From IMG/VR virus record IMGVR_UViG_3300044788_000027, positions 1 to 45,599 of that record: a stretch of DNA of 45,599 bases; one strand, written 5' to 3'. Below, piece by piece: positions 6,269 to 45,599 of this stretch (position 1 is the stretch's first letter; each line of letters starts with the position of its first letter). The position numbers and the translations under genes were made by a program. Source of the DNA: a virus (Duplodnaviria > Caudoviricetes). Below the pieces are notes generated by a model. That model worked only from the letters and a program-made list of their open reading frames with translations, ran no database searches and had not been told where the DNA came from.

Positions 6269-6537
6269 GCGCCCGCGTGATCGTCACCCTCAGCCAGCTG
6301 CACGACGTCGCGCGCCAGGTGCGCGAGCAGCGGGCCCACCTGACCGCCCTGCAGCGCGTCACTGCCCTATGCGGGTTGCAGGCCGCGGCGTTCGAGCTCG
6401 CGAGCCAGGTGCAGCTGCTCGAGCGCGACAACGCCGGCGAGGTGCTCGCCGACCTGTCGGCCTGGCGACGGGAGGCCGAGGTGCTGGTCGAAGTGGAGCG
6501 CGCCCTACTGCGCCGCGACCTCGAGGGGCGACGCTGA
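6265..6537 (+). CDS. Hypothetical helical protein
   Basis: Overlapping start and stop codons. Confidence 0.5.
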   Translation: MSARVIVTLSQLHDVARQVREQRAHLTALQRVTALCGLQAAAFELASQVQLLERDNAGEVLADLSAWRREAEVLVEVERALLRRDLEGRR

Positions 6538-6773
6538 TGCCCTGGCTGATGCTCACTCCGCGCGAGGTCGAGGACGTGTTCAGGGACAGCCCGAACCTAC
6601 AAGGCAATTCCCCGGCGCTCAGGGCCGTGCAGGAGCGGCTCAACCGCCTGACGGGCGAGGTCACCCTGTCAGACGAGCAGCTCGACGCCTGCAGGGCCGG
6701 CAGGACCAACTGGCGGGGCGGCCACGAACGCGCGATGAACGCCATCGTGCGCGCGGCCGACCGCATGGCCTGA
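6537..6773 (+). CDS. Hypothetical protein
   Basis: GAGGGG SD, TGATG coupling; ends just before the origin. Confidence 0.55.
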   Translation: MPWLMLTPREVEDVFRDSPNLQGNSPALRAVQERLNRLTGEVTLSDEQLDACRAGRTNWRGGHERAMNAIVRAADRMA

Positions 6774-6774
6774 C

Positions 6775-6995
6775 TTTTCAACAGGTTTTCCACAGGTTAT
6801 CCGCAACCTGTGGAAAACTCCCGACCCGCTCTAAGGGGATTCCCTTACCCGCCGGCGATTTTCACAAACCATCAACAGCTGCCTGTGCACGGTAACCTGC
6901 TGAGCCAATTGAGTTCTGAGCGGTTTTCCACATTTGCACAGGCCCTTCTTCTTCTTCTTATCCATACAAACCTATAAGAATCTAGGAATTAAGAG
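6775..6995 (+). other. oriC-like DnaA-dependent replication origin
   Basis: DnaA-box-like 9-mers TTTTCAACA 6775, TTTTCCACA 6786, TTATCCGCA 6797, inverted TGTGGAAAA 6809; TTTTCCACA 6924 / ATTTGCACA 6932, then GGCC, (CTT)5 trios at 6945-6959, then an AT-rich tract; only long AT-rich intergenic region. Confidence 0.8.
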
Positions 6996-7006
6996 CGCCG
7001 AACCCG

Positions 7007-7036
7007 TTGACAACAACCGGGTTTTTGACAACAATC
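7007..7036 (+). promoter_or_regulatory. Tandem TTGACAACAA operator/promoter motif
   Basis: TTGACAACAACC at 7007 and TTGACAACAATC at 7025; same motif as 4112, 34573, 44862. Confidence 0.55.
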
Positions 7037-7049
7037 GGCCGTTCCTGCG

Positions 7050-7583: not shown

Positions 7584-7857
7584 GATCCGTGACGCGCGCA
7601 TCGAGCTCAATCGGCAAGAGAAAAAACTGAAGGCGCGGGCGATCGTCCTGATGCACCAGCACGGCAAGACCACCTACAAACACGAAGCGATCGAGATCGA
7701 GCTCGAGCCGGGCGAAGAGGACATCAAGGTCAAGGTGAAATCAGGCACCGAGATCAAGTCACACGGCGAAGCGAATCCCGACGACGGCACCGAGCTCGAG
7801 CAGGTGGAGAACGTCGATCTGCGCGAGCTGGAAGATCCGGCGCATGGAACGCGGTAA
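7411..7857 (+). CDS. Hypothetical protein (basic N-terminus, acidic C-terminus)
   Basis: AAGGAG SD; overlaps the upstream gene tail by about 170 bp. Confidence 0.65.
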   Translation: MPRKRQPKPAGHERQQPTRQGKQAAKAVREKVRQPQQRALIEDARIGALDKIGYRYAEIRDARIELNRQEKKLKARAIVLMHQHGKTTYKHEAIEIELEPGEEDIKVKVKSGTEIKSHGEANPDDGTELEQVENVDLRELEDPAHGTR

Positions 7858-8884
7858 ACACCGGCCGCGCGCCGGCCTCACGCGCGTCGAAGCGGTTCGG
7901 CCGATCGTGATCGGGCACTACAAGCTGACCGCGACCGGCATGGATGTGGACGGCCGGCCCGACTTTGCCGAGCATGCTTCAGTCGGCGAGTTCATCCGCC
8001 GCGCGCAATTCGCGAGCGGATTTTGGCTCGCCGATTGGCTGCGCTACGGCGACAGTCGGCACGAATGGCAGGAGCGGCTCGAGCAGGCCATCGACGCCAC
8101 CGGCTACAGCGAGAAGACGCTCAAGAACGTGCGCGCGGTCGGTGCGATCGAGAAATCCCGACGTCGGGAAGGCATCGAGTTCGGCCTGCATGATGCCGTC
8201 GCCTCGCTCGAGCCGGAGGAACAAAGCGACTGGCTCGAACGCGCCGCGGAAAACGGTTGGGGGGTGCGCGAGCTGCGCCTCTCGATTCGCGCGGCGCGCC
8301 GGCGCCGCGTGCTCGAGGGCCAGGCCACGCTCACCGGCATGTATCGCGTGATCTACGCGGATCCGCCCTGGCTCTACGGCGACAGCGGGCCCACCGCGGA
8401 CGGCAGCCTGGGCAAATCGGAACGGCACTATCCGGGCATGACGATCGACGAGCTCTGCCGGCTGCCCGTCGCCGCGCACTGCACGCCGCACGCCGTGTTG
8501 TTCCTCTGGACGACGGCGCCCTTTCTGATGATGAACCCCGGCCCGCGCGAGGTGCTCGAGGCGTGGGGGTTTGACTACAAGACGGGCCTCGTGTGGGATA
8601 AGGTGTTCGGCAACTTCGGGCACTACGTGCACGTGGCCCATGAACACCTGCTGATCTGCACGCGCGGATCGTGCCTGCCTGACGAGCCGATCCCGTCGCC
8701 CTCGAGCGTCTACCACGAACGGCGCTCGAGCATCCACAGCGAGAAACCCGCCGGCGTGCGGAAACTAATCGAGCAGCTCTACACGACCGGGCCCTATCTC
8801 GAGCTCTTCGGACGCGAACCTGTGCCCGGCTGGTCCGTGTTCGGCAACGACGCCCGACTCTGGGCGGAAGAGGCCGCATCGTGA
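7844..8884 (+). CDS. MT-A70-family N6-adenine methyltransferase with N-terminal LmbU-like DNA-binding domain
   Basis: VIYADPPW, LFLWTT, WGFDYKT, HEHLLI, HSEKP, YLELFGR..GW..FGN; N-terminal FWLADWLRYG..TGYSEKTLKN..EQSDWL. Confidence 0.85.
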   Translation: MERGKHRPRAGLTRVEAVRPIVIGHYKLTATGMDVDGRPDFAEHASVGEFIRRAQFASGFWLADWLRYGDSRHEWQERLEQAIDATGYSEKTLKNVRAVGAIEKSRRREGIEFGLHDAVASLEPEEQSDWLERAAENGWGVRELRLSIRAARRRRVLEGQATLTGMYRVIYADPPWLYGDSGPTADGSLGKSERHYPGMTIDELCRLPVAAHCTPHAVLFLWTTAPFLMMNPGPREVLEAWGFDYKTGLVWDKVFGNFGHYVHVAHEHLLICTRGSCLPDEPIPSPSSVYHERRSSIHSEKPAGVRKLIEQLYTTGPYLELFGREPVPGWSVFGNDARLWAEEAAS

Positions 8885-9763: not shown

Positions 9764-10735
9764 ATGGCACAAGGCATCAAGCTCGTTCGGCCGTCGTCTG
9801 ATTCCGAGAAACGCACGCGCACCACCGTGGACACGATCGAGCTTACGCCGGCGCTGGTGAAAACCTGGCAGATCCCGCCGTTTCAGCGGGCGTTCCGCCT
9901 GAATCGAAAAGTGCAGGAGGTCGTGCAGCAGATCATCACGGACGGCGGCGTGCTGCCCGGCGTGATCACGCTCGGCGTGTTTGAAGGCAGTGTCTACATC
10001 GTGGACGGCCAGCACCGCGTCAAGGCCTTTGAGATGAGTCAGCTGCCGCTCGGCTACGCGGACGTGCGCCAGCACTATTTCACAACGCTCGCCGAGATGT
10101 CCGACGAGTTCGTGCAACTGAACAGCAGCCTGGTGCGCCTGCGGCCCGATGACATTCTGCGCGGCCTCGAGGCATCGACGCCCGTGCTGCAGCGCCTTCG
10201 GAAACGGTGCCCGTTCATCGGTTACGAGCACATTCGGCGTAGCGGTTCCGGCGCCGTGATGTCTATGTCCACGTTCATACGGGCCTGGGTGGGCGGGCGG
10301 AACGAGTCGCCGGCCATCACCGTGCCCGCGACGACGGCCGTGCAGTTGCTCGACGAGGAAGAAGCGAACGGCGCGATCGACTTCGCGACCCTGTGCTTTG
10401 GGGCCTGGCAGCGGGACAACGAATACGCGAAACTCTGGTCAGGCATCAACATGATGCTCTGTGCCTGGCTCTACCGGCGGCTGGTGATGGGCCAGGGCGT
10501 TTCAAGCACCTCGAGATGGACCCGCTACACGAAAGAGGATTTTCGGCGCGCACTGATGGCTCTCTCGAGTGAGGCGATGTATCTCGAGTTTCTTGTCGGG
10601 CGGAACGTCAGCGGGCGCGATCGCTCGCCGGCCTACAGCCGCATCAAGACCATCATCGGCCGGCGTTATCAGCAGGACCACAATAAGAAACCGCTGCACC
10701 CGCAACCCTCGTGGTCGCACTCGGGAGCGCGGTAA
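9764..10735 (+). CDS. ParB/Srx-like (DGQHR) domain protein
   Basis: PFQR..YIVDGQHR..EFVQLNS. Confidence 0.7.
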   Translation: MAQGIKLVRPSSDSEKRTRTTVDTIELTPALVKTWQIPPFQRAFRLNRKVQEVVQQIITDGGVLPGVITLGVFEGSVYIVDGQHRVKAFEMSQLPLGYADVRQHYFTTLAEMSDEFVQLNSSLVRLRPDDILRGLEASTPVLQRLRKRCPFIGYEHIRRSGSGAVMSMSTFIRAWVGGRNESPAITVPATTAVQLLDEEEANGAIDFATLCFGAWQRDNEYAKLWSGINMMLCAWLYRRLVMGQGVSSTSRWTRYTKEDFRRALMALSSEAMYLEFLVGRNVSGRDRSPAYSRIKTIIGRRYQQDHNKKPLHPQPSWSHSGAR

Positions 10736-30328: not shown

Positions 30329-32061
30329 TGCCTACCGTGCAAACCTACGGCGCGCGCAAGGTCAGCACCGCGCGATTGCCCGGCGCGCGATTGACCGCGG
30401 CCGAGACGCCGGAGTCACAGGGCGCCGGCCTGGCCTCGGCTCAAGGCCGCACCGCCGGCGTCATCAACCAGATCGGCCGCCAGGTGGGCGCGCTCGGCGA
30501 GAGCCTCTACGGCCAGGCCCAAGAGGAACAGCGGCACGCCGACCAGGTGGCGCTGATGGAAGCCGAAAACAAACTGTCATCCTGGGAGAATCAGCGCCTC
30601 TACGACCCGGAGAACGGCGCGCTCGGCGTCAAGGGCAAGGCCGCGATGGGCCTGCCGGAAACCGTCAACGGCGACTACCAGAAGTTCGCCGGCGAGATCG
30701 AGCAGGGCCTCACAACCGATCGCCAGCGCGAAGCGTTCGCCGTCGTCGCCGGCCGGCGCGGGCAGAGCATCGATCTGACGCTGCAGCGGCACGTCTTCGG
30801 CGAGATCAAGCAATACGAAAGCGACGAGCTCACGAAGCTCATCGACAACAAGAAGCAGGAAGCGATTCAGAACGCGGCCGACCCGCGGCGCGTGGGCGTC
30901 GCGCTGAACGATGCGATCGCCGCGCTCGAGAGCTCGGCCCCGCGTTTGGGCACTGGCCCCGAAGAGCTCGCCGCACAGAAGCGCCTCATCACCAGCAACA
31001 CGCACGTCGGCGTGCTCGAGCAGCTGCTCGCGACCGGCCAGGGCAAGCAGGCGAAAGTTTATTTCGACGAAACGAAGGGCCTGATCTCCGGCGACCAGCT
31101 GCCGCGCATCGAGCGCGCGCTCGCGGAAGGCGACACCCGCGGCGAGTCGCAGAAGCAGGCCGATGCCATCCTGGCCGCCGGTGGCACGTTGTCCGAGCAG
31201 CTCGCGAAGGCGAAAACGATCGATGACCCGGCCGTGCGCGATATGACCGAGCAGCGCCTCGAGCACCAGAACAGCATCAACGAACGGATCCAGCGCGAGC
31301 AGAGCGAGGCGGCGCTCAAGGCGTCTTACGATCGCATCGACCAAACCGGCGACCCCTACAGCATCCCGCCGAGCACGTGGGCGAGCCTCAGCGGCGGCGA
31401 ACGGTCCTCGCTCCTGGCGTATGCCGAGCACCGCGCGAAGGGCACCGAGGTCGAAACCGATCTGCCGACCTACTACAACCTGATGCAGACGGCTTCGAAA
31501 GAGCCGGGGATCTTCGCGACCGCGAACCTGCTCAAATATCGCGACAAACTCGGCCGCACCGAGTTCAAGCAGCTCACCGAGCTGCAGCTCGCGATGCGGC
31601 GCGGCGACAAACCCGTCGCCGAGCAGGCCCTCGACGAGTTCCGCTCGAGCAACCAGATCGTCAGCGATACGCTCAACCAATACGGCATCGATCCGACACC
31701 GAAGGAAGGCAGCAAGCCAGCTGCGGCCATCGCGCAGCTGCGCCGCATGCTCGACTTGCGCGTCGCTGCCGCGCAGCCGATCGATCCCAAGACCGGCAAG
31801 CGGCCGAAGATCACCAACGTCGAGGTGCAGCGGGCGCTCGACGATCTGCTCGGCCAGAGCGCCAACGTCAAAGGTTCCTGGTGGAACATCTGGCCGGGCG
31901 GCGCGCCGTTCTACGACACCAGTAAAAAGCTGATCGACCTGACGATCGAAGATGTGCCCGCCGACGCGAAAGCGGACATCACGCAGAAGCTCAAACGCCG
32001 CGGCCTGCCGGCGACCGACCCGGCCGTGCTCAACGTGTATATCGAGTCACAGGTCAAGTGA
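30328..32061 (+). CDS. Internal virion/ejection protein (gp15-like)
   Basis: MPTVQTY start, helical, lies between the other two ejection genes. Confidence 0.75.
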   Translation: MPTVQTYGARKVSTARLPGARLTAAETPESQGAGLASAQGRTAGVINQIGRQVGALGESLYGQAQEEQRHADQVALMEAENKLSSWENQRLYDPENGALGVKGKAAMGLPETVNGDYQKFAGEIEQGLTTDRQREAFAVVAGRRGQSIDLTLQRHVFGEIKQYESDELTKLIDNKKQEAIQNAADPRRVGVALNDAIAALESSAPRLGTGPEELAAQKRLITSNTHVGVLEQLLATGQGKQAKVYFDETKGLISGDQLPRIERALAEGDTRGESQKQADAILAAGGTLSEQLAKAKTIDDPAVRDMTEQRLEHQNSINERIQREQSEAALKASYDRIDQTGDPYSIPPSTWASLSGGERSSLLAYAEHRAKGTEVETDLPTYYNLMQTASKEPGIFATANLLKYRDKLGRTEFKQLTELQLAMRRGDKPVAEQALDEFRSSNQIVSDTLNQYGIDPTPKEGSKPAAAIAQLRRMLDLRVAAAQPIDPKTGKRPKITNVEVQRALDDLLGQSANVKGSWWNIWPGGAPFYDTSKKLIDLTIEDVPADAKADITQKLKRRGLPATDPAVLNVYIESQVK

Positions 32062-35000
32062 GCGATTTCGATCAGACCATCGACGCGATGCAGGAACCCG
32101 CGCCCGGCACGCAGCCGGCGCCGCCGGATCCGTTCGATCAGGCCATCGACCGCATCAACGCCACCGGCCGCACGCAGCTCGAGACAGCGTTCCGCACAAC
32201 GGCCGACGTGGCCCCCGATCGCGCGGCCGAAGCGCGGCGCCTCGCGCTCAAGTTTGGCGCGCCGGCCCAAGTCATCGAGCGCAACCTCGAGGACTATCAG
32301 AAGCGCGCCGCCGGCGAGAAGCCGATCGACCAAATCACGCACGACAGCCCCGCGCTCGCGACGTGGGCGAAGGACACCAACAACGCGGCGATCGCGCAGG
32401 ACGACCTCGAGCCACTGGGAAATCTCGAGTGGATCCTCAAAGCCGTGCCGCGCGCGTTCCAGCAACAGGTTGATCAGGTCGCCTACAGCCAGCTCCGCTA
32501 CAAAAGTCTGTTCAGCACGCTGACGCAGGCCGAACACGACCTGATGGAGAGCACGAAGCGCGCGAGCACGCTCGGCGGCGAGCTCGGCGCCGGCAATAGC
32601 TGGTTCCGCAAAGCGATTACCGGCGCCTCGCAGCTACTCGCGCAAGGCGTCGAGCCGATCAAATACACCATCGCGGGACTTGGCGAGGGCGCCGTCGTCG
32701 GCGCCGTCGTGGCAGCCGTGGCCCCGCCGGCGGCCCCGATCACCGCGTTCGGCGGCGCGATGGCCGGCGCCGCGATGGGCGGCACCTACGGCGTCATCCG
32801 CACGACCGCGATGCAGGAGACGGTGCAGGCTTACGACGAGCTGCTCGAGATGCGCGACGAGCATGGCGTCGGCGTGGATCCGCAGATCGCGAAGATCGCC
32901 GCGCTCGGCGTCGGCGGCCTCAACGGCCTGATCGAGCTCGCCGGCGTCGAGAAGTTCCTCGAAACCATCCCCGGCCTCGACAAGCTGCGCGGCAAGCTCT
33001 CACGCAGCGCGATGAAGGAGGCACTGCGCTCGCCGACGATCCGCAGCGCGTTCCGCCAACTCGCGACCGAATACGGCGGCACGCTGACCGCCGAGACGGC
33101 GACCGAAGTGGCGCAGCGCGCCGTCGCGATCGCGGGCGAAGAGCTCTCGAAGAGCGCCAGCGCCACGAAGGGCGTCACGACGTTGACCGGCACCGCGGCG
33201 ATGCGCACGCCGAGCCAGGTGGGCACCGAGCTCATTGACGAAGCCGTGGGCGCCGTGCAGTCGTTCGCGCTCGGCATCGCGCCGGGCCCCGTCGCCACGT
33301 TCGTGCACGACGCGGCACGGGCCAAGCGCGCGAGCATCAATCAATCATTCTTCAAGGCGCTCAACGAGGGCGTGGCGCAGTCGAAGACGTTCGAGCGGCT
33401 GCCCGAGGCGGCGCAGCGCTTCGTGGAAGAGGCGACGAAGGACGGGCCCGTGGGCACCGTCTACGCGCCCATCGACAGCTGGCGGCAATACTGGCAATCA
33501 CAGAACCTCGACCCGGCGGCGATGGCCGAGCAGGTGACCGGCAACAAGACGGCTTACGACCAGGCGGTCGCCAGTGGCGGCGACCTACCGATCCCGACCG
33601 CCCGCTACGCGGTCACCCTGGCCGGCACCGAACATAACGGCTACTTTGCCGACGAGCTCCGGCTCGGCCCCGACGAGATGAACGGCCGGGAGCAGAAGCA
33701 GTTCGTCGAGCAGCTACAGGCCGCGCGCGAGCTCGTGACCCAGGCCGCCACCGCAGAGCCCAACGCGGCGCGCCAGGGGGTGCTCGAGCGCCTCACCGCG
33801 GCCGGCGTGCCCGCCGAGACGGCCCAACGCTACGCCGACATCTACGCCTCGGCCGGCGGCGAGTCGGGCATCTTCGCCGGCGGCGCCGTCACGCGCGCCG
33901 GCATGGATCCGGCCGAGTTCTACCGGCAATACGGCCTCACCATCAGCCGGGAGGGGCAGGCAATAAGTGTTCCACGTGGAACATCTGAGCAGACCCGTGC
34001 AGCCACCGCGGCAGCCACAGAGAAGGCGCCGGGCCCGCCACAGGACGACATCACGGCCGGCGTGCCCTCTGCTGAGGGCCAGGTGCCCGCCACGACGGTC
34101 GAACCCGCCCTGCCGGCCGGTGCAGGCCCGGCCGCGTTCGCGGGCCCTGAGCGGCGCCAGGCCATCGGCATCGGCCCTGCCGGCGTCGAGCGGCGCGCCA
34201 CGGCCGATCAGCCGATCGATACGACCGACGTGCACGCGGCCGTCGCGCAGATGGTCGCCGAGAATCCGAACATCAAGGCCGAGGCGGCAGCCCTGGGCGA
34301 GCGTGCGCGCGCGGCGAACCGGGAGAGCCGGGCCCGGATTGCCACGGCAAACCGGCGCGCAGACCCCCAGACGGAGCACTTCGCCGAGCAGTGGGCGGCA
34401 ACCGGCCAGGTGCGCACGGTCAGCCCCGCCGGCGTCGAGCACCTCGTCACCGAGAGCCAGGCCGAGCCGGGTAAGTTTGACGTGCAAACCCTCGAGGGCG
34501 GCGCGGTCACCGCAACGCAGACCGTTGAGAACCTGCCGGCCGCGGCCAAGCTGCTCGCGGACCATAAGGTTCTTGACAACAATCAGGCGACTGATCAGAC
34601 TGGAGCACCTCATGCCGGCCCCGAATCCCAACCGCGCGCGGCAGCTCGTAAGCGCGGGCTCGCCGCCGGGGACAGCATTGCGCCAAGCTCTCCGCGAGTC
34701 GTCGAAACCACAAGCGCCGCCGGCAACCGGAGCGTCCGGCAAGAATCGCCCGCCCAACGGGCTGAGCGCCGCGCGAAGCACTTCGCCGACGTCTTCAAGG
34801 TCGTCTACGCCAACGCGCGTCAACTAGACCCGACCGTCAACCGCAAAGCCCTGTTCGCCGAGTTCGAGCAGCGCCTCGCGCTCTACGACGAGCTGCAATC
34901 GCTCTATCGCGAGAGCGGCCACGACCCGAAGGATCTGCTGCGGGCGATCGCACAGCGCGGCGGCCTGGCCGAAAAGGCCGGCGGCTACACCGGCGAGATC

Positions 35001-38000
35001 GCCGACCTAAAGAGCGGCAACAAGTTCGGATCACTGCAAGGGGTCGGCGGCGTCTTCCGCAAGCGCGAGACGGACACGCGGGGCGTGCCAATCAAAGGGC
35101 TCGACGCGGACCTGATGACGACCTCGCTGCAGCAAGAGCAGCGGTTCAATTGGATCACCGACCCGAACGTGCTGCTCGACGCGCTCGACGAGATCAGCCG
35201 GAACCCGCCGAAAGAAGACACGTTCCCCGGCACGGCCGAGCTCTACGCCGACATGAACATCGACATGATGACAACGTGGTGGCGCGACAGCTGGCGCGAT
35301 CAGAATCTCACCGACGAGACGACGATCGATGACGGCAGCAGCGACATTCTCGAGCCGGCCGGCGCCGTCGATACCTCGTTCAACATCGACGAGTTCAGTC
35401 AATCGCTGTTCGACGAGCTCGAGCCGCCAACCGCGACGGAGACGCTCGCCGACACGCTCGACACCGGCGAGCAGCAGCCGCGGCTTCCCGACGTCGGGAC
35501 GGTGCGCGATCAGAACGTGCCGACGCCACAGCTCGAGGCGCCGTTCTCGCTCACCTCGGAGGTCGCCAAACCAGCGAAGGGCAAACAGACCACGCTGTTC
35601 CAGAGCGTCTATCACGGCACGCCCTACCGCTTCGAGAAGTTCGACCTGCAGGCGATCGGTAGCGGCGAGGGCGCGCAGGCCTACGGATGGGGGCTCTACT
35701 TTGCGGGCTCGCGCGAGGTCGCCGAGTATTACCGGGACAAGCTGACCGAGCAGCTCGGCGCGCCGGCGAATCAATTCACTGCGCTCGACACGTTCCAGAA
35801 CGACATTCTGCCCGACCAGGTGCGCCTCGACATCGCGAAGGGGCAGCAGGCGGGCGGCGCGTTCGAGGATTCGCGCGCGGCGATCGCCGCCTACAGGGCC
35901 GACTACACGGCGCGCCTCGAGCGGTCGGCGCTCTCGATTCAAGAGTTCAACGACCAGGCGGCCGGCGTGCATGCGCACACGCGCCAAGACATCGCGCTCA
36001 ACGAGGCGCGCGTGCGCGACATGGCGCGCAACCAGCAGATCCTCAGCGTGCTCGAGCAGCTCGAGGCGAGCGGCGACTTCACGACGGCCGCCGAAACGCG
36101 CGGCACGCTCTACACCGTGGAGATCCCCGAAGACGAGCACATGCTCGACCACGACAAGCTGGCAAGCCAGCAGCCGCCGGCTGTGCAGGCCGCGCTGCGC
36201 GAGCTCGGCCTGACCTGGCTGCCTACCCACATCCCGACGAACCAGGCCGAGGCGCTCAACGTGTTCGAGGCCGACTACGTGCGCGATATCTGGCTCGAGG
36301 ACGTCGGGATCCGCGAATCGCTGAAGGAAGGCCTGCACTACGCGCGGAACGACAACATGCCCGCGTTCCGCAGCTGGTTCCAACTGCACGCCGGGCTGTT
36401 CATGCCAGAAGGCAACACCGATCAGAACGGCCGACAGATCTACGACCAGCTGCAAAGCGAGTGGATGCAGACGAACCGCCACAGCTCGCTGAAGGAATCC
36501 GCGAAGGCCGCGAGTCTGCAGCTGCTCAGTAAGGGCGTGCTCGGCATTCGCTATCTCGATGGCGTCTCGAGGCGCAAAGGCGAGGGCAACGCGAACTATG
36601 TGCTGTTCGACGATCGGCACGCGCAGATCACCGAGTTCGGGCAGCCATTGCCCGCCGCACTGGACACGGCGACCGTCAACGCCTGGGCGCAGGACGTGCA
36701 GGAGCGCGCCGGCGCCGACCTGGTGCACTTCGACGTCCGACTACTCGCGAGCACCGGCGACCTCGAGCTCGAGACGATCGCCGTCAACCGCGGCGCGCAA
36801 CGGGCCGGCCTGGGCAGCCGCGTCATGCAGGAGCTCACGCGGTTCGCTGACCAGCACAACAAGCGCATCGTCGTGACGCCGGCGCCGCGCGGATTCGCGC
36901 CGGGCGGCGGGGCTGTGACCTCGAGCCGCTCGCGCCTGGTGAACTTCTACAAGCGATTCGGGTTTGTCGAGAACAAGGGCCGGCAGAAGGATTTCACCAC
37001 GCAGGCCGGCATGTATCGCGAGCCGACCGTGATCCCTGGTCGGGAGATGGCGCAACCGCTGTTCCACGGATCGCCGCATGACTTCGAGAAGTTCTCCCTC
37101 GAGCACGTCGGCACCGGGGAGGGCGCCGCATCTTACGGCTACGGGCTTTACTTCGCCGAGAACCCCGTCGTCGCCGCGGGCTATCACGATCGCCTGAGTG
37201 GCGAGCCGCAAGTGCGGCGCATGCAGATCGGTTCGCTGGTCGTCGGCCAGATGAACGATTTCGACTACTCGCGCAACGCGCACGTCAGCGACTACGAGAA
37301 CATCCGCGCGAGCTTGGCCGAGGATCTGCTGATCCATCCGCTCGATCTGCTCGCCGCCGGCGAGGCAGGTTTCCGCGAGCACGTGCTGAAGACGCTCGAC
37401 CAGAAGATCGCCGACTACGCGACCGAGTGGCCCGAGGGCGCGATCGCCGGTAAGGCGCTCCACGCGGCGCTCGCGAAACCGGGCGCGCTCAGTATCAAGT
37501 TCGATCCCAAGAGTGGCGGCGTCTACCAGGTTGACATTGCCGACAGGCACATCGAGAAAATGCTCGACTGGGACGCGCCTATTCAAGAGCAGCCGGAAGC
37601 CGTCAAAGATCTGGTGCGCAAGGCCCTGCAGGAGCAGGGCTATCTCGCTAAGGGCGAGAACGGCCCGCGTCAGCTCGTCAGCGCGTTCAAGGCGTTCACC
37701 CTTGAGCGTGGCGGCATGGCACAGGGGCCAACAGGCGAATTTGCTTACGACACGATCGTGCAGGCTGAAGTGCGCAAGCAGGGCGCCGCACTCCTGGCCG
37801 AGCAGCAGGCGCTCAACGTGAAATACCCCGGCCCTGGCATTGCGGCAATTCGATTCGGCGACACGCCAGCCGCGCAGATGGACCTGAAGCGGTTTCTCAC
37901 GATCGATGCCGAGCTCGGCAAGATTCGGGACACCGCGCCGAAGGCCGCAAGCGCGCGGCTCGCCGCGGCCGGGGTGCCTGGCTTGCGCTACCTCGACGCT

Positions 38001-41000
38001 GGATCGAGAGATACCGGCCAGGGGACGCGTAACGTCGTCGTGTTCGATGCGTCGATCGTCGAGCTCACGCACAAGGACGGCACGCCAATCACGGCCGCCG
38101 AACGGAAGGAATATCTGCAGGGGACGCCCGGCGGTGGCCCTGAAGGCCAGGCGACACCGCGCCGCGGCGCCATTCGGTTCGGCCCGAGCCGGCAGTTCGA
38201 CATCGCGCTACTCGAGCGCGCCGACCTCTCGACCTTCCTGCATGAGAGCGGGCATTTCTTCCTCGAGGTGTTCGGCGATCTGGTGGACAAGGTGACCGCG
38301 ATCGAGCCGGCCGCGCGCACCGCCTCGCAGACGCAGCTGCTCACCGACTGGGATACGCTGCTCGGCTCGTTTCGCGATCCGCTCACTGGCACGACCGGGA
38401 TCAGCTCGCGCGCCGCCATCACCGAAGCACAGCACGAACAATTCGCGCGCACGTTCGAGGCCTACCTCATGGAAGGGAAGGCGCCGAGCCTCGAGCTGCA
38501 GAGCACGTTCTCGCGATTCCGCGCCTGGCTGATCGGCATCTATCGATCGCTGAAGAACCTGGGCGTCGAGATGACCCCCGAGGTGCGCGGCGTGATGGAC
38601 CGCCTGCTGGCGAGCGACGCGGCGATCGCGCAGGCGGAAGCACAGCGTGGTATCGGCGCAATGTTCGTGACCGCCGAGATGGCCGGCATGAGCGCCGACG
38701 AGTTCGCGCTCTACAAGCAGACCGTCGCCGATGCCTCGAGGACCGCCCGCGAGCAGCTCGATCGCAAGCTGCTCAGTGAGGTGCAGCGCGAGCAGACAAA
38801 ACAGTGGAAGGCGATGCGCGAAGAGATCCGCGTCGAGGTCGAGCGCGCCGTGCATGGCGAGCCGGTCTACCGGGCGCTCAGCGCGATCCGCTCCGGCGAG
38901 AATCCAGACGGCACGCCGCTCGAGGAAGGCAAAGAGCTGACGCCGCTCACGCTCTCGAGTCAGGCGATCCGTAACCGCTACGGCGCCGCGCACCTCAAGC
39001 GCCTGCCTCGAGGGCTGACCACGACCGAGGGCGGGCTCGACCCCGACCTGGTGGCCGATCTGTTCGGGTTTGCCAGCGGCGACGCGATGCTCACCGCGCT
39101 CGAGAACGCGCCGCCGGCGAAGCGCGTCATCGACACGACGACGCAGCGCAAGATGCTCGAGGAACACGGCAGCATCCTGCTCGACGGCACGCTCATGGAT
39201 CACGCGCAGGCGAGCGTCTCGAACGAGGACCGCGAGATGGTCATCCGCAAGGAGATGCGCGCCCTGGGCCAGCTGCGCCGGCGCGTGGCGCCGTTTGTCG
39301 AGCAGGGCAAGCGCGCCGAGCGCGCCGCCGGCGCCGCGACACAGGCCGCCAGCGAGAAAGAACGCGCGTATGAACGGCGATGGTTCGAGGCCGAGGCGAA
39401 GCTGCGCGTCGCGATCGCGACAGGCGAGCAGCAAGTCATCATCGATCAGCTCACCGACGAAGTGAACAACCTACGGCAGAAAGCCCGCGGCGGCGCCGCC
39501 ATCATCCGCGCCGGCATCCCGCCGGCCAACGTGCTGCGCGACGCGGCGCGCGCGGCCATCGGCGACACGCTGATCCGCGACGTCAAGCCCGAACGGTTTT
39601 GGTCGGCGTCCCGCCGCGCCGGTCAGGACGCGATCGAGAAGGCCGCACGCCAAGACTTCAACGGGGCGATCGTTGCGAAGCAGCAGGAGCTCATCCACCT
39701 GCAGATGTATCGCGAGGCGCAGGCGGCGCTCGACGACATCGACGCCCGCGTGCAAGCCGCCAAGGATCTCGCCAAACCCTCGAGGCGCGCGGCCATCGGC
39801 CAGGCGGGCAGCGGCTACCTAGACCAGATCGACGGCCTGCTCGACCGCTATCAATTCGCCCACGTGAGCAACAAGGTGCTCGAGCGCCGGGCCGAGCTCC
39901 GCAACTGGGCCGAGGCCCTCGAGGCGCAGGGGATGCCCGTGGACTTGCCCGACGAGCTGCTCAACGAGGCGCGCCGGAAGAACTACCAGGAGATGACCTA
40001 CGCCGAGCTGGTCGGCGTCACGGACGGCATCAAGCAGATCGTCCACCTGGCGCAGCTGCAGGGCCGGCTGCTCAAGGCTGTCGATACGCGCGACTTCAAC
40101 GAGCTCCGCGACAACGTGATCGCGTCGATTCGGGCGAACCACAGCGCGCGGGCGCTGCCGCTCGAGTTCCGCGAGGCCGACGTGCGCACGCGCTCCGTGT
40201 CTAATTGGTTCGCGAGTCATCGGAAGATCAGCGACATCGCGCAGGCCTTTGACGGTTATGTAGACGGGGGCATCTTCTGGTCCGCGTTCATGCGGCCGAT
40301 CAACGAGGCCGGCGACGCCGAGCAGCTGCGCAAGGGCCAGGCCGGCGCCGCCTACCAGAAGATTCTCGAGCAGGCCTACCCCGGCCGAGAGCTCGCGACG
40401 CTGCGCACGATGCAGCACATTCCGGCCATCAACAGCAGCCTGTCGAAAGAGGCGCGACTGGCCGTCGCGCTCAACTGGGGCAACCAGGAAGGGCGCGATC
40501 GCCTGACGACCGACGCCACCCGCAAGTGGTCGCACGACCAAGTGGTCGCCATCCTCGACACGCTCGACGCGCGCGACTGGCAGTTCGTGCAACAGACCTG
40601 GGACTACCTCAACACGTTCTGGCCGGAGATCGCCGCGAAGATGGAACGGGTCACCGGCCTGCCGCCCGTCAAGGTTGAGGCGCTGCCCGTGCAGACGAAA
40701 TTCGGCGAGCTCAAGGGCGGCTATTACCCGCTGGCCTACGACAGCCGCCTGAACCCCCGCCAGGCGCAGCACGAAGAGGCGAACGCCGCGAAGCTGCAGA
40801 CCGCCGCGGCCTACATCCGCACGACGACGAAGCGCGGCCACGAGAAAACGCGGCAGGCGTTCGTGAAAAGCAGCGTGCGTCTCGAGATCGGCGTCGCGTT
40901 CGCGCATCTGGATCAGGTGATTCACGACTTGACGCACCACGAGACGCTCATCGACACGACGCGGCTGCTCCGTAATCCGCTGGTGACGAAGGCGATCCTC

Positions 41001-42176
41001 GAGACACACGGCGACATCGTGTTTCAACAGCTGACGCGCGGCTTGCAGGACATCGCGATGGGCTCGACGCCGAAGGCCAACACGGTGCTCGACAAGAGCC
41101 TCAACTACGTGCGCACCGGCACACAGATCGCCGGCCTGGGCTGGAACCTCTGGACCGGCCTGCAGCAGCCGCTCGGTCTGTTCAATGGCGCCTCACGTGT
41201 CGGCGCGCCCTGGGTGCTCCGCGGCCTGACGCGCTGGCTGCGCGACGCGGCCACGATGGAGCACACGACGAAGTGGATCGCCGAGGCGTCGCCGATGATG
41301 CGCGCGCGCACGCAGACGGCGACGCAGGATCTCGTTGATTTGCGCGCCGCGTTCCGACAACCGGGCGGCTGGTTCGACACGTTGGTGCGCACGGTCACCG
41401 CCGACCACGTGACGCAGCAGACGATCGTGGATTCGTTCCTGTGGCATATCGGTGTCGCGCAGCGCGTCGCCGACGTGCCGACCTGGCTCGGCCAGTATGA
41501 GAAATCGCGCGCCGCCGGCGAGAGCGAAGAACGCAGCGCTCGCATCGCGGACCAGGCCGTGCTCGACAGCCAGGGCGGCGGCCAGATCAAGGATCTCGCG
41601 CAGGTGCAACGCGGCGGGCCCGTCGCGCGCGTGTTCCTCACGTTCTACAGCTACGGCAATACGGTGTTCAACGCGACCGCGCGCGCGGCCGGCAAAACGA
41701 ACTTCCGATCGCCGACGCAGGTGGCGACGTTCCTCGGTCACCTGACGCTGCTCTACATCGCGCCGGCGTTCGCCACGACCATGCTCTCGCGGATGACCGG
41801 GCGCCGCGGCGGCGACGATGATACGCCCGACAAGTTCGTCGGCGACTGGCTGCAGGAGACGATCGTGACCGCGATGAACACGATGATTCTGTTGCGCGAG
41901 CTCGGCGGCCTGGCGCAAGACGGCGCCCGCGGCTACGCCGGCCCGGCCGGCACGCGGATCGGTTCGCTGCTTTATAACGCCTGGCGCCAGGTTGAGCAGG
42001 GCGAGCTCGACGAGTCACTGTTTAAAGCGATCAACGCGGCGGCCGGCATCTTGTTTCACTATCCGGCCACGCAGGTGCAACGCACGATCGACGGATGGGT
42101 GGCGCTCGAGGAAGGGCGCACGACGAACCCGGCCGTGCTGCTCACAGGCCCGCCGCCGAAGAATCAGGCCAAGTAA
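32058..42176 (+). CDS. Giant internal virion protein (gp16 position), polyvalent: two ART-like domains, GNAT-like domain, HExxH metallopeptidase-like domain
   Basis: YHGT/FHGS..GEGA..YG.GLYFA twice; [16 protein letters not shown]; [19 protein letters not shown]. Confidence 0.85.
33968..33983. promoter_or_regulatory. Chromosomal-type parS site
   Basis: TGTTCCACGTGGAACA, a perfect 16-bp palindrome matching the widely conserved parS consensus. Confidence 0.8.
34573..34614 (+). promoter_or_regulatory. Intragenic promoter/operator copy
   Basis: TTGACAACAATC; TTGACA-17 bp-CAGACT, then GGAG and an out-of-frame ATG at 34612. Confidence 0.4.
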
Positions 42177-45234: not shown

Positions 45235-45599
45235 GTGTCAAAAAGTAAACCCGTGCGCGGTCGCTATGTGGGCGACGGTCGGCGCACGCGCACCGTCCCG
45301 ATCGAAATGAATCGGCAGGCGCCGCGCGCCGCGCTAATTCGCCAGGTCGGCGTTCAAAGCAAGCAGCGGTTCGCGAAGCAAATAAAACGCGCGCGCCTGA
45401 TCCTCGGCGACCTTGAGGTCGGCACGGCGCTCGCGCGCCGGCACGGCGACGTTCCCGACGTCGGGACGGCGGGGTTCCCGCTCGAGCACGACAACGGCAC
45501 GCTCGGCGAAGAGGCCGCGCTCGGCGCGCTCGGCCTGGTCGAGATCAAGCTGACCGACGCCGAAGAGGCGATCCTCGCGCAGCCCGTGCCCGTCACGGC
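45235..45599 (+). CDS. 5' part of the Mgm101/Rad52-family gene (continues through the junction to 994)
   Basis: GGAAGGGA upstream of GTG45235; frame open into the repeat. Confidence 0.65.
   Translation, partial: MSKSKPVRGRYVGDGRRTRTVPIEMNRQAPRAALIRQVGVQSKQRFAKQIKRARLILGDLEVGTALARRHGDVPDVGTAGFPLEHDNGTLGEEAALGALGLVEIKLTDAEEAILAQPVPVT
45399..45599. repeat. Terminal direct repeat, right copy
   Basis: 200/201 identical to 1-201. Confidence 0.95.

Follow-up and report, generated by a model that had tools for sequence, protein, structure and literature searches.

A chromosome-type parS site paired with an oriC-like gap suggests that a phage may mimic its host's chromosome

In the phage family studied here, predicted host-type parS sites and predicted clusters of DnaA boxes occur together, and this pairing is the new part of what we report. 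Judging from sequence, the parS site of one member likely loads the host's ParB protein, and we favour the reading in which the site and an oriC-like gap jointly imitate the host chromosome, as two DNA elements without any protein component. Searches of the openly accessible literature listed no phage with both elements and no case of their exchange for a DnaB module. Our analysis covers a window of 45,599 nucleotides, the whole stretch of DNA that was analysed, which is the IMG/VR record of a virus of the Caudoviricetes. The features on which the argument draws are listed below.

45399..45599 (no strand): terminal repeat, a 201-bp copy of positions 1-201 with 1 mismatch
188-994: Mgm101/Rad52-type annealase (Pfam E 5e-27)
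6537..6773 (+): small gene at the left edge of the swapped module; the predicted origin comes next here, an orphan gene plus DnaB in relatives
6774..7049 (+): non-coding oriC-like gap of 276 bp with nine DnaA boxes
6924..6990 (+): basal-unwinding-system-like module, with tandem boxes, GGCC at 6941-6944, six trios at 6945-6962 and an AT-rich tract
7844-8884: MT-A70 methyltransferase with an LmbU-like N-terminal domain (LmbU 82 bits, cut-off 125)
9764..10735 (+): ParB/Srx-fold protein with a DGQHR motif, by fold match; 782 homologues
32058..42176 (+): giant polyvalent protein gene, 3372 aa, with LPD22, ART-PolyVal and GNAT domains
33966..34005 (+): parS cassette, comprising the site and a conserved flank on its 3' side; 26-nt identity with the relative G001, flank common to G009 and G041
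33968..33983 (no strand): chromosomal-type parS palindrome, single copy; the exact 16-mer also lies beside parA in the candidate host class
L393:461-1087 (in the relative G040): HTH_36 initiator-like gene containing two DnaA boxes and a short direct repeat

Because bases 45,399-45,599 repeat bases 1-201, we take the record to be a circularly closed genome of 45,398 bp; its completeness is rated at 99% in the IMG/VR record. The sequence is present in sediment metagenome runs, and a public assembly, which may be the source of the IMG/VR record, has 0 differences from the window. The recognised phage genes all lie on the same strand and include those for terminase, portal, capsid, tail proteins and the 3372-aa polyvalent protein. 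An annealase of the Mgm101 type, the true start of whose gene probably lies across the terminal repeat, is encoded together with an exonuclease, and many early ORFs have no assigned family. Out of 255 listed ORFs, overlapping sets of 56, 47, 30 and 50 proteins were scanned for families; none was recognised as a polymerase, primase, helicase, initiator, integrase, repressor, ParA, HTH-ParB or Rep. Searches of the phage genome by tblastn with host ParA, host ParB and the helicases of relatives gave no match, and Rfam gave none in the window or in three loci of relatives.

Two further observations can be added. The fusion of LmbU-like and MT-A70 domains is conserved in much of the phage family and is a candidate sequence-targeted methylase. 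A second palindrome, TCCCGACGTCGGGA, occurs four times in the phage (55-68, 8156-8169, 21444-21457 and 35486-35499), where about 1e-3 or less would be expected. The relative G041 has 3 copies in matching places (near the start of the Mgm101 gene, in the MT-A70 gene and just past the capsid stop codon), in G009 and G010 it occurs with an additional base at its centre, and G001 has none. This palindrome is probably an operator.

The parS palindrome itself, TGTTCCACGTGGAACA, is found as one perfect copy at 33968-33983. It has 0 mismatches to TGTTNCACGTGNAACA, which we take to be the consensus of the 16-bp chromosomal parS bound by ParB (Spo0J), and no other copy within 2 mismatches of that consensus exists elsewhere in the phage genome. 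The first-pass annotation had placed a perfect parS here, in a linker of the giant gene, and we confirm the exact 16-mer, which is read in frame as (AG)T GTT CCA CGT GGA ACA, or S-V-P-R-G-T, at codons 637-642 of ORF 32058-42176. It had also remarked that the local codons end in A or T within a gene that otherwise prefers G or C. The run proves to be nine codons long (33960-33986), one beyond those it listed; the next longest such run in the giant gene is 5, and the GC3 of the gene is 0.874. Under Markov models of orders 0-4, an exact match is expected 2e-6 to 2e-5 times per genome (about 1e-5), and the probability of the observed codons, given the peptide, is 2.6e-8.

That selection might act on the DNA rather than on the protein was likewise proposed from the sequence of this phage, and the comparison with its closest relative (G001, capsid 95% identical) supports it. 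There the site lies in the same linker of the giant gene, within a 26-nt identical block and with the rare codons unchanged, while the flanks have diverged. Persistence of the 16-mer in a homologous gene with diverging flanks had been suggested as a check, and it is seen in this relative; presence in close relatives, a further check, is seen in G001, and most relatives lack the site. These comparisons support DNA-level selection on the phage site; its identification as a host-type parS is supported by the bacterial gene context described below.

The giant protein is presumably of the ejection type, given the position of its gene. Homologous loci in relatives were collected with an alignment query, a single-protein query having given none. 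The site falls in a variable Ala/Pro-rich linker after the N-terminal domain, and starts six residues past R631, the last nearly invariant column of that domain in an alignment of 30 of the 91 homologues. We rejected VPRGT or VPRET as a peptide footprint: among the 91 giant homologues VPRGT is present in 3, no more than some permuted peptides, and the VPRET matches are a conserved helix motif. Two giant homologues other than the phage's own, P0002 and P0078, have VPRGT in the same linker. We propose that the linker is a tolerant place for the 16-mer and that the protein need not take part.

Scans of whole records for parS took in 50 relatives from 61 loci. Exact sites were found in four of the 50 (G001, G009, G010 and G041) and one-mismatch sites in G018 and G042; the backwards control gave 0 exact matches. 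The site is within the giant gene in the present phage (G000) and in G001, and is intergenic, just past a stop codon, in G009, G010 and G041. Between the in-gene site and the intergenic sites of G009 and G041, 20 of 30 bases of the downstream flank are shared, against a background of 7.7 ± 2.5 at unrelated loci (maximum 14, n = 250). A palindromic variant, CGTTCCACGTGGAACG, occupies the same giant-gene linker in G040, and a one-mismatch variant follows the terminase gene in G225; in all, parS recurs at four positions in the family. Since it occurs in-gene, between genes and after the terminase gene across relatives, the giant protein is incidental. By these sequence comparisons, parS moves between intergenic and in-gene places together with its flank.

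Looking across other viruses, we estimate from 3/64 parts of the collection that about 2,600 stored viral stretches carry the exact 16-mer; the backwards control occurs in 3 of the whole viral collection, which makes parS about 900-fold enriched. The loci examined (121, plus the phage's own) contain 125 sites, 44 of them in open frames of at least 200 codons and 28 of these in the VPRGT frame. The 121 loci (L002-L122) represent 113 distinct contexts, with sites in open frames of unrelated viral contigs in all three frames. Chromosomal contamination was rejected as their source, as 0 of 80 flanked loci have ParA, ParB or Gid (3 kb, E 1e-5). An unrelated 45-kb phage (G206), with an ORF that we presume to be initiator-like, has parS at G206:C1:40485-40500 in the VPRGT frame of its own 2377-aa giant gene, a convergent placement, and has no DnaA cluster. 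Of 41 parS-bearing viral records unrelated to the family, none shows the strict box-trio pattern. A general link between oriC and parS thus fails outside the phage family, and these two results suggest that, for the most part, parS is of use without a mimicked origin. Host-type parS in phages is common and has a precedent in phi29, as the accessible text of PMC2731898 describes, and is not new.

The identity of the 16-mer with the conserved chromosomal parS, asserted in the first-pass annotation, is supported by gene context in bacteria. In an Acidobacteriota metagenome-assembled genome (MAG; G051) the identical 16-mer stands in the order gidA-gidB-parS-parA-parB. Exact parS occurs in 42 of 151 genomes of the same class, at 1-3 copies each (backwards control, 0), and ParA adjoins the site in all ten host-class loci fetched. 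G051 also includes a contig on which a relative of the giant gene, at 52% identity, is linked to host genes (asparaginase, MobA-like, DUF218 and a PD-(D/E)XK nuclease). This single MAG contig is the strongest host evidence, and it points to an Acidobacteriota host for the phage; other relatives of the phage are binned with other phyla. A capsid search of 401 host-class genomes found a single contig, made up of a whole phage; it counts as evidence of binning only. Acidobacteriota are not known to sporulate.

The second element is the gap at 6774-7049. Scored against what we take to be the DnaA-box consensus, it contains all three perfect boxes of the phage genome (6786+, 6809- and 6924+) and six boxes with one mismatch (6775, 6797, 6858, 6932, 6958 and 7022). 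Shuffled versions of the gap have a mean of 0.02 perfect and 0.40 total boxes, and 0 of 2000 reach 3 or 9. Within the putative unwinding module, the upstream box of the tandem pair (6924, 0 mismatches) is closer to the consensus than its partner (6932, 1), and the spacer from the better box to the trios (CTT five times and ATC) is 12 bp. The trios lead into the most AT-rich tract of the phage genome, whose lowest-GC 27-mer starts at 6955. Search criteria given in the accessible text of PMC8287927 are tandem boxes, a spacer of at most 16 bp (peak 10-13) and at least 3 trios with a central A; all of these are found in the gap, with its tandem boxes, 12-bp spacer and six trios. There are four trios in G010 and in G041, and those of G001 are degenerate, so that the strict pattern fails there.

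An independent sequencing run covers the gap with no differences. An RNA run was rejected as evidence of transcription, because its coverage includes the non-coding gap too. GC3 skew has no switch at the predicted origin; the detrended whole-genome skew has its minimum at 7.5 kb, which we do not use as origin evidence. Judged by eye, the dnaA-dnaN gaps of five host-class genomes resemble the phage gap in having a box, a short spacer and a tract of pyrimidines, and the phage's exact box-trio pattern occurs in 0 of the 151 host-class genomes.

The association of the two elements was assessed in 42 genomes, namely the phage and 41 of the 50 relatives. Nine fragments were dropped, and the incomplete records G009, in which the early region is missing, and G010 were retained because they bear parS. 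A DnaA-box cluster score of at least 5 is found in G000, G001, G010 and G041, all of which have a perfect parS, and no score exceeds 3 among the 37 genomes that lack one. DnaB was matched in 17 of these 37 and in 0 of the 5 parS genomes. Where the position of DnaB was examined, in five genomes (G002, G004, G013, G027 and G036), the place of the gap is taken by an orphan gene of ~160 aa and DnaB, preceded by an SF2 helicase. The model of the orphan protein has a weak resemblance to phage replication proteins (TM 0.53-0.55), which is a lead only. As a separate observation, helicase-type relatives have a conserved, apparently non-coding stretch of 450-500 bp before the orphan gene and DnaB (L325:1430-2120 in G013; L279 in G002), with no Rfam match; it is possibly an origin or an RNA.

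The Fisher P for the association of cluster and parS in the family, 1e-5, overstates the case because the trait is present in only 2-3 lineages; for DnaB absence alone P is 0.07. Two trait changes are needed on each of the TerL, portal, MT-A70 and Mgm101 trees, and strong branches force two on the TerL and MT-A70 trees only; the portal and Mgm101 trees are compatible with a single origin. In other words, the independent sample is two or three lineages. The helicase-type sister genomes G002, G004, G013 and G015 have no parS. An out-of-sample search anchored on the methyltransferase found G225 (of which G224 is probably a near copy), with a cluster score of 7, the one-mismatch parS and no DnaB/helicase module; it also added six helicase-type records (34-100% complete), and none of them has parS. 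The locus L216 has a cluster score of 8, and the 24 kb examined of its 43.6 kb contain no parS at up to 2 mismatches; G018 and G042, each with a one-mismatch site, have no DnaA cluster. G040, in which a parS variant occurs alongside an HTH_36 gene of its own, may be an intermediate between replication types.

What might bind the phage site? The earlier statement that neither ParA nor a canonical HTH-ParB is encoded holds for the scanned ORFs, but it left unmentioned the ParB/Srx-fold protein with a DGQHR motif at 9764-10735. The model of this protein has a pLDDT of 90 and a weak structural match to ParB-N/Srx (best E 2.7e-4, TM about 0.3), and a sequence search of the PDB gave 0 matches. By tblastn it has no match in the other 41 genomes, including G001 with its identical site. 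It is rejected as the parS binder because parS-bearing relatives lack it, and its absence from the 41 relatives makes a recent insertion probable. No gene of the phage is specific to the parS group, and the binder is most likely the host's protein.

A phage protein binding the palindrome as its own operator is very improbable. Arguing for such a binder are the encoded ParB/Srx-fold protein and the N-terminus of the methyltransferase, which matches LmbU below the cut-off. Counter to this, the former is confined to this phage among the 42 genomes, the LmbU-MT-A70 gene is present in 16 of 16 DnaB-type genomes without parS, and no phage gene tracks the parS group. We give almost no credence to parS as a product of chance or a neutral remnant of captured host DNA. 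Most relatives do lack the site, and VPRGT is no commoner in giant homologues (3 of 91) than some permuted peptides, but the expectation of about 1e-5, the rare codons unchanged in G001 and the recurrence at four positions all speak against it.

Alternatively, the gap could be a titration or transcription-control site instead of an origin, with replication by recombination or an unrecognised initiator, and with parS and the boxes together disturbing the host cell cycle. Consistent with this are the annealase and exonuclease genes, the lack of a skew switch, the many early ORFs without a family and the degenerate trios of G001. We nevertheless regard it as improbable, since the gap conforms to the published box-spacer-trio pattern beside an AT-rich tract, its position is exactly that of DnaB in relatives, and recombination genes are also found in 15 of 16 DnaB-type genomes. 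It is also rather unlikely, in our view, that parS recruits host ParB independently of the origin, through phi29-like positioning, SMC loading or titration of ParB away from the chromosome, and that shared ancestry or host lineage accounts for the pairing. The roughly 900-fold viral enrichment, mostly without an origin pattern (0 of 41; G206), fits such a role, as does the small number of lineages that carry the pairing, and titration in particular would be favoured by the mere 1-3 exact sites of host-class chromosomes. However, the helicase-type sisters are without parS, and the pairing appears again in G225 with a different parS variant at a different position.

Returning to the preferred reading, in which parS and the gap together mimic a host chromosome, the exact parS within a virion gene and the chromosome-style origin sequence at the place of the relatives' helicase suggest that the phage is likely copied and sorted by host DnaA and ParB as a tiny extra chromosome. 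Injected phage DNA would be circularised, host DnaA would open the origin at the box-spacer-trio module, and the host machinery would then replicate the phage. Host ParB-CTP would load at the phage parS and spread, and host ParA would position and distribute the phage circles. ParB at parS loads SMC, and SMC may possibly be loaded at the phage site as well. Dependence on DnaA would put phage replication in step with the cell cycle of the host, and it is then that a partition site would pay off. The accessible text of PMC12704722 describes ParB-CTP clamps that load at parS and engage ParA, and that of PMC6399470 describes how ParB in B. subtilis switches ParA between activating and inhibiting DnaA; ParB and ParA might tune DnaA at the phage origin. 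No repressor was found in the scanned phage ORFs, so that a stable carrier state would be hypothetical. More tentatively, and as something we consider possible rather than probable, the family may have swapped its replication proteins more than once for a host-type oriC and centromere. The outcome would be a minichromosome that forms virions, relies on DnaA for initiation and on ParABS for segregation, and keeps pace with a slow-growing host; its parS would travel as a mobile ~40-bp cassette able to insert into a coding linker.

A phage would normally be expected to supply its own initiator and to avoid the cell-cycle control of its host. Here, one family offers a natural pair of replication types, an own helicase module versus a host-type oriC with parS. 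This pair makes testable both the role of a lone parS in a non-sporulating host and whether an origin dependent on DnaA only can drive a phage life cycle. Given that about 2,600 viral stretches carry exact parS, the answer bears on a common, little-studied feature. Speculatively, the 276-bp origin and the 16-bp site might seed vectors for Acidobacteriota.

Among known systems, P1 and N15 are plasmid prophages with their own Rep and ParABS, and mycobacterial plasmid prophages of the same kind have reportedly been found. Like the proposed phage circle, they are phage DNA outside the chromosome that has both origin and centromere. They differ in encoding an initiator or Par proteins of their own and in using a distinct parS sequence; none of these was recognised in this phage. 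Phage phi29, for its part, encodes its own polymerase. According to the accessible text of PMC2731898, it carries five host-type parS sites that are bound by host Spo0J for entrapment in spores. To the extent of that text, phi29 and the present phage are alike in lacking their own ParAB, in having host-type parS and in the proposed use of the host segregation machinery. They differ in the number of sites, five in phi29 versus one here within 2 mismatches, and in setting, spore entrapment in the one case and, in the other, a family linked to an Acidobacteriota MAG, with a probable non-sporulating host. Moreover, phi29 is described there as linear with terminal proteins, whereas this phage is circularly closed and has an oriC-like gap and no recognised replication genes.

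The predicted module resembles the bacterial oriC basal unwinding system, as set out in the accessible part of PMC8287927, in its tandem boxes, the upstream one the better, and in the 12 bp that lead to six bottom-strand trios with a central A. It differs from that system in not lying beside dnaA/dnaN and in its trios, 3'-GAA-5' here versus the commonest 3'-GAT-5'. Unlike chromosomal ParABS, the phage has no parA or parB genes, and 18.4 kb separate its parS from the predicted origin round the circle, whereas in two host-class genomes the distance from parS to dnaA is about 9 kb. A likeness to the chromosomal ParABS systems near oriC that are covered by the accessible texts of PMC6399470 and PMC12704722 is that the identical 16-mer shares its replicon with an oriC-like locus.
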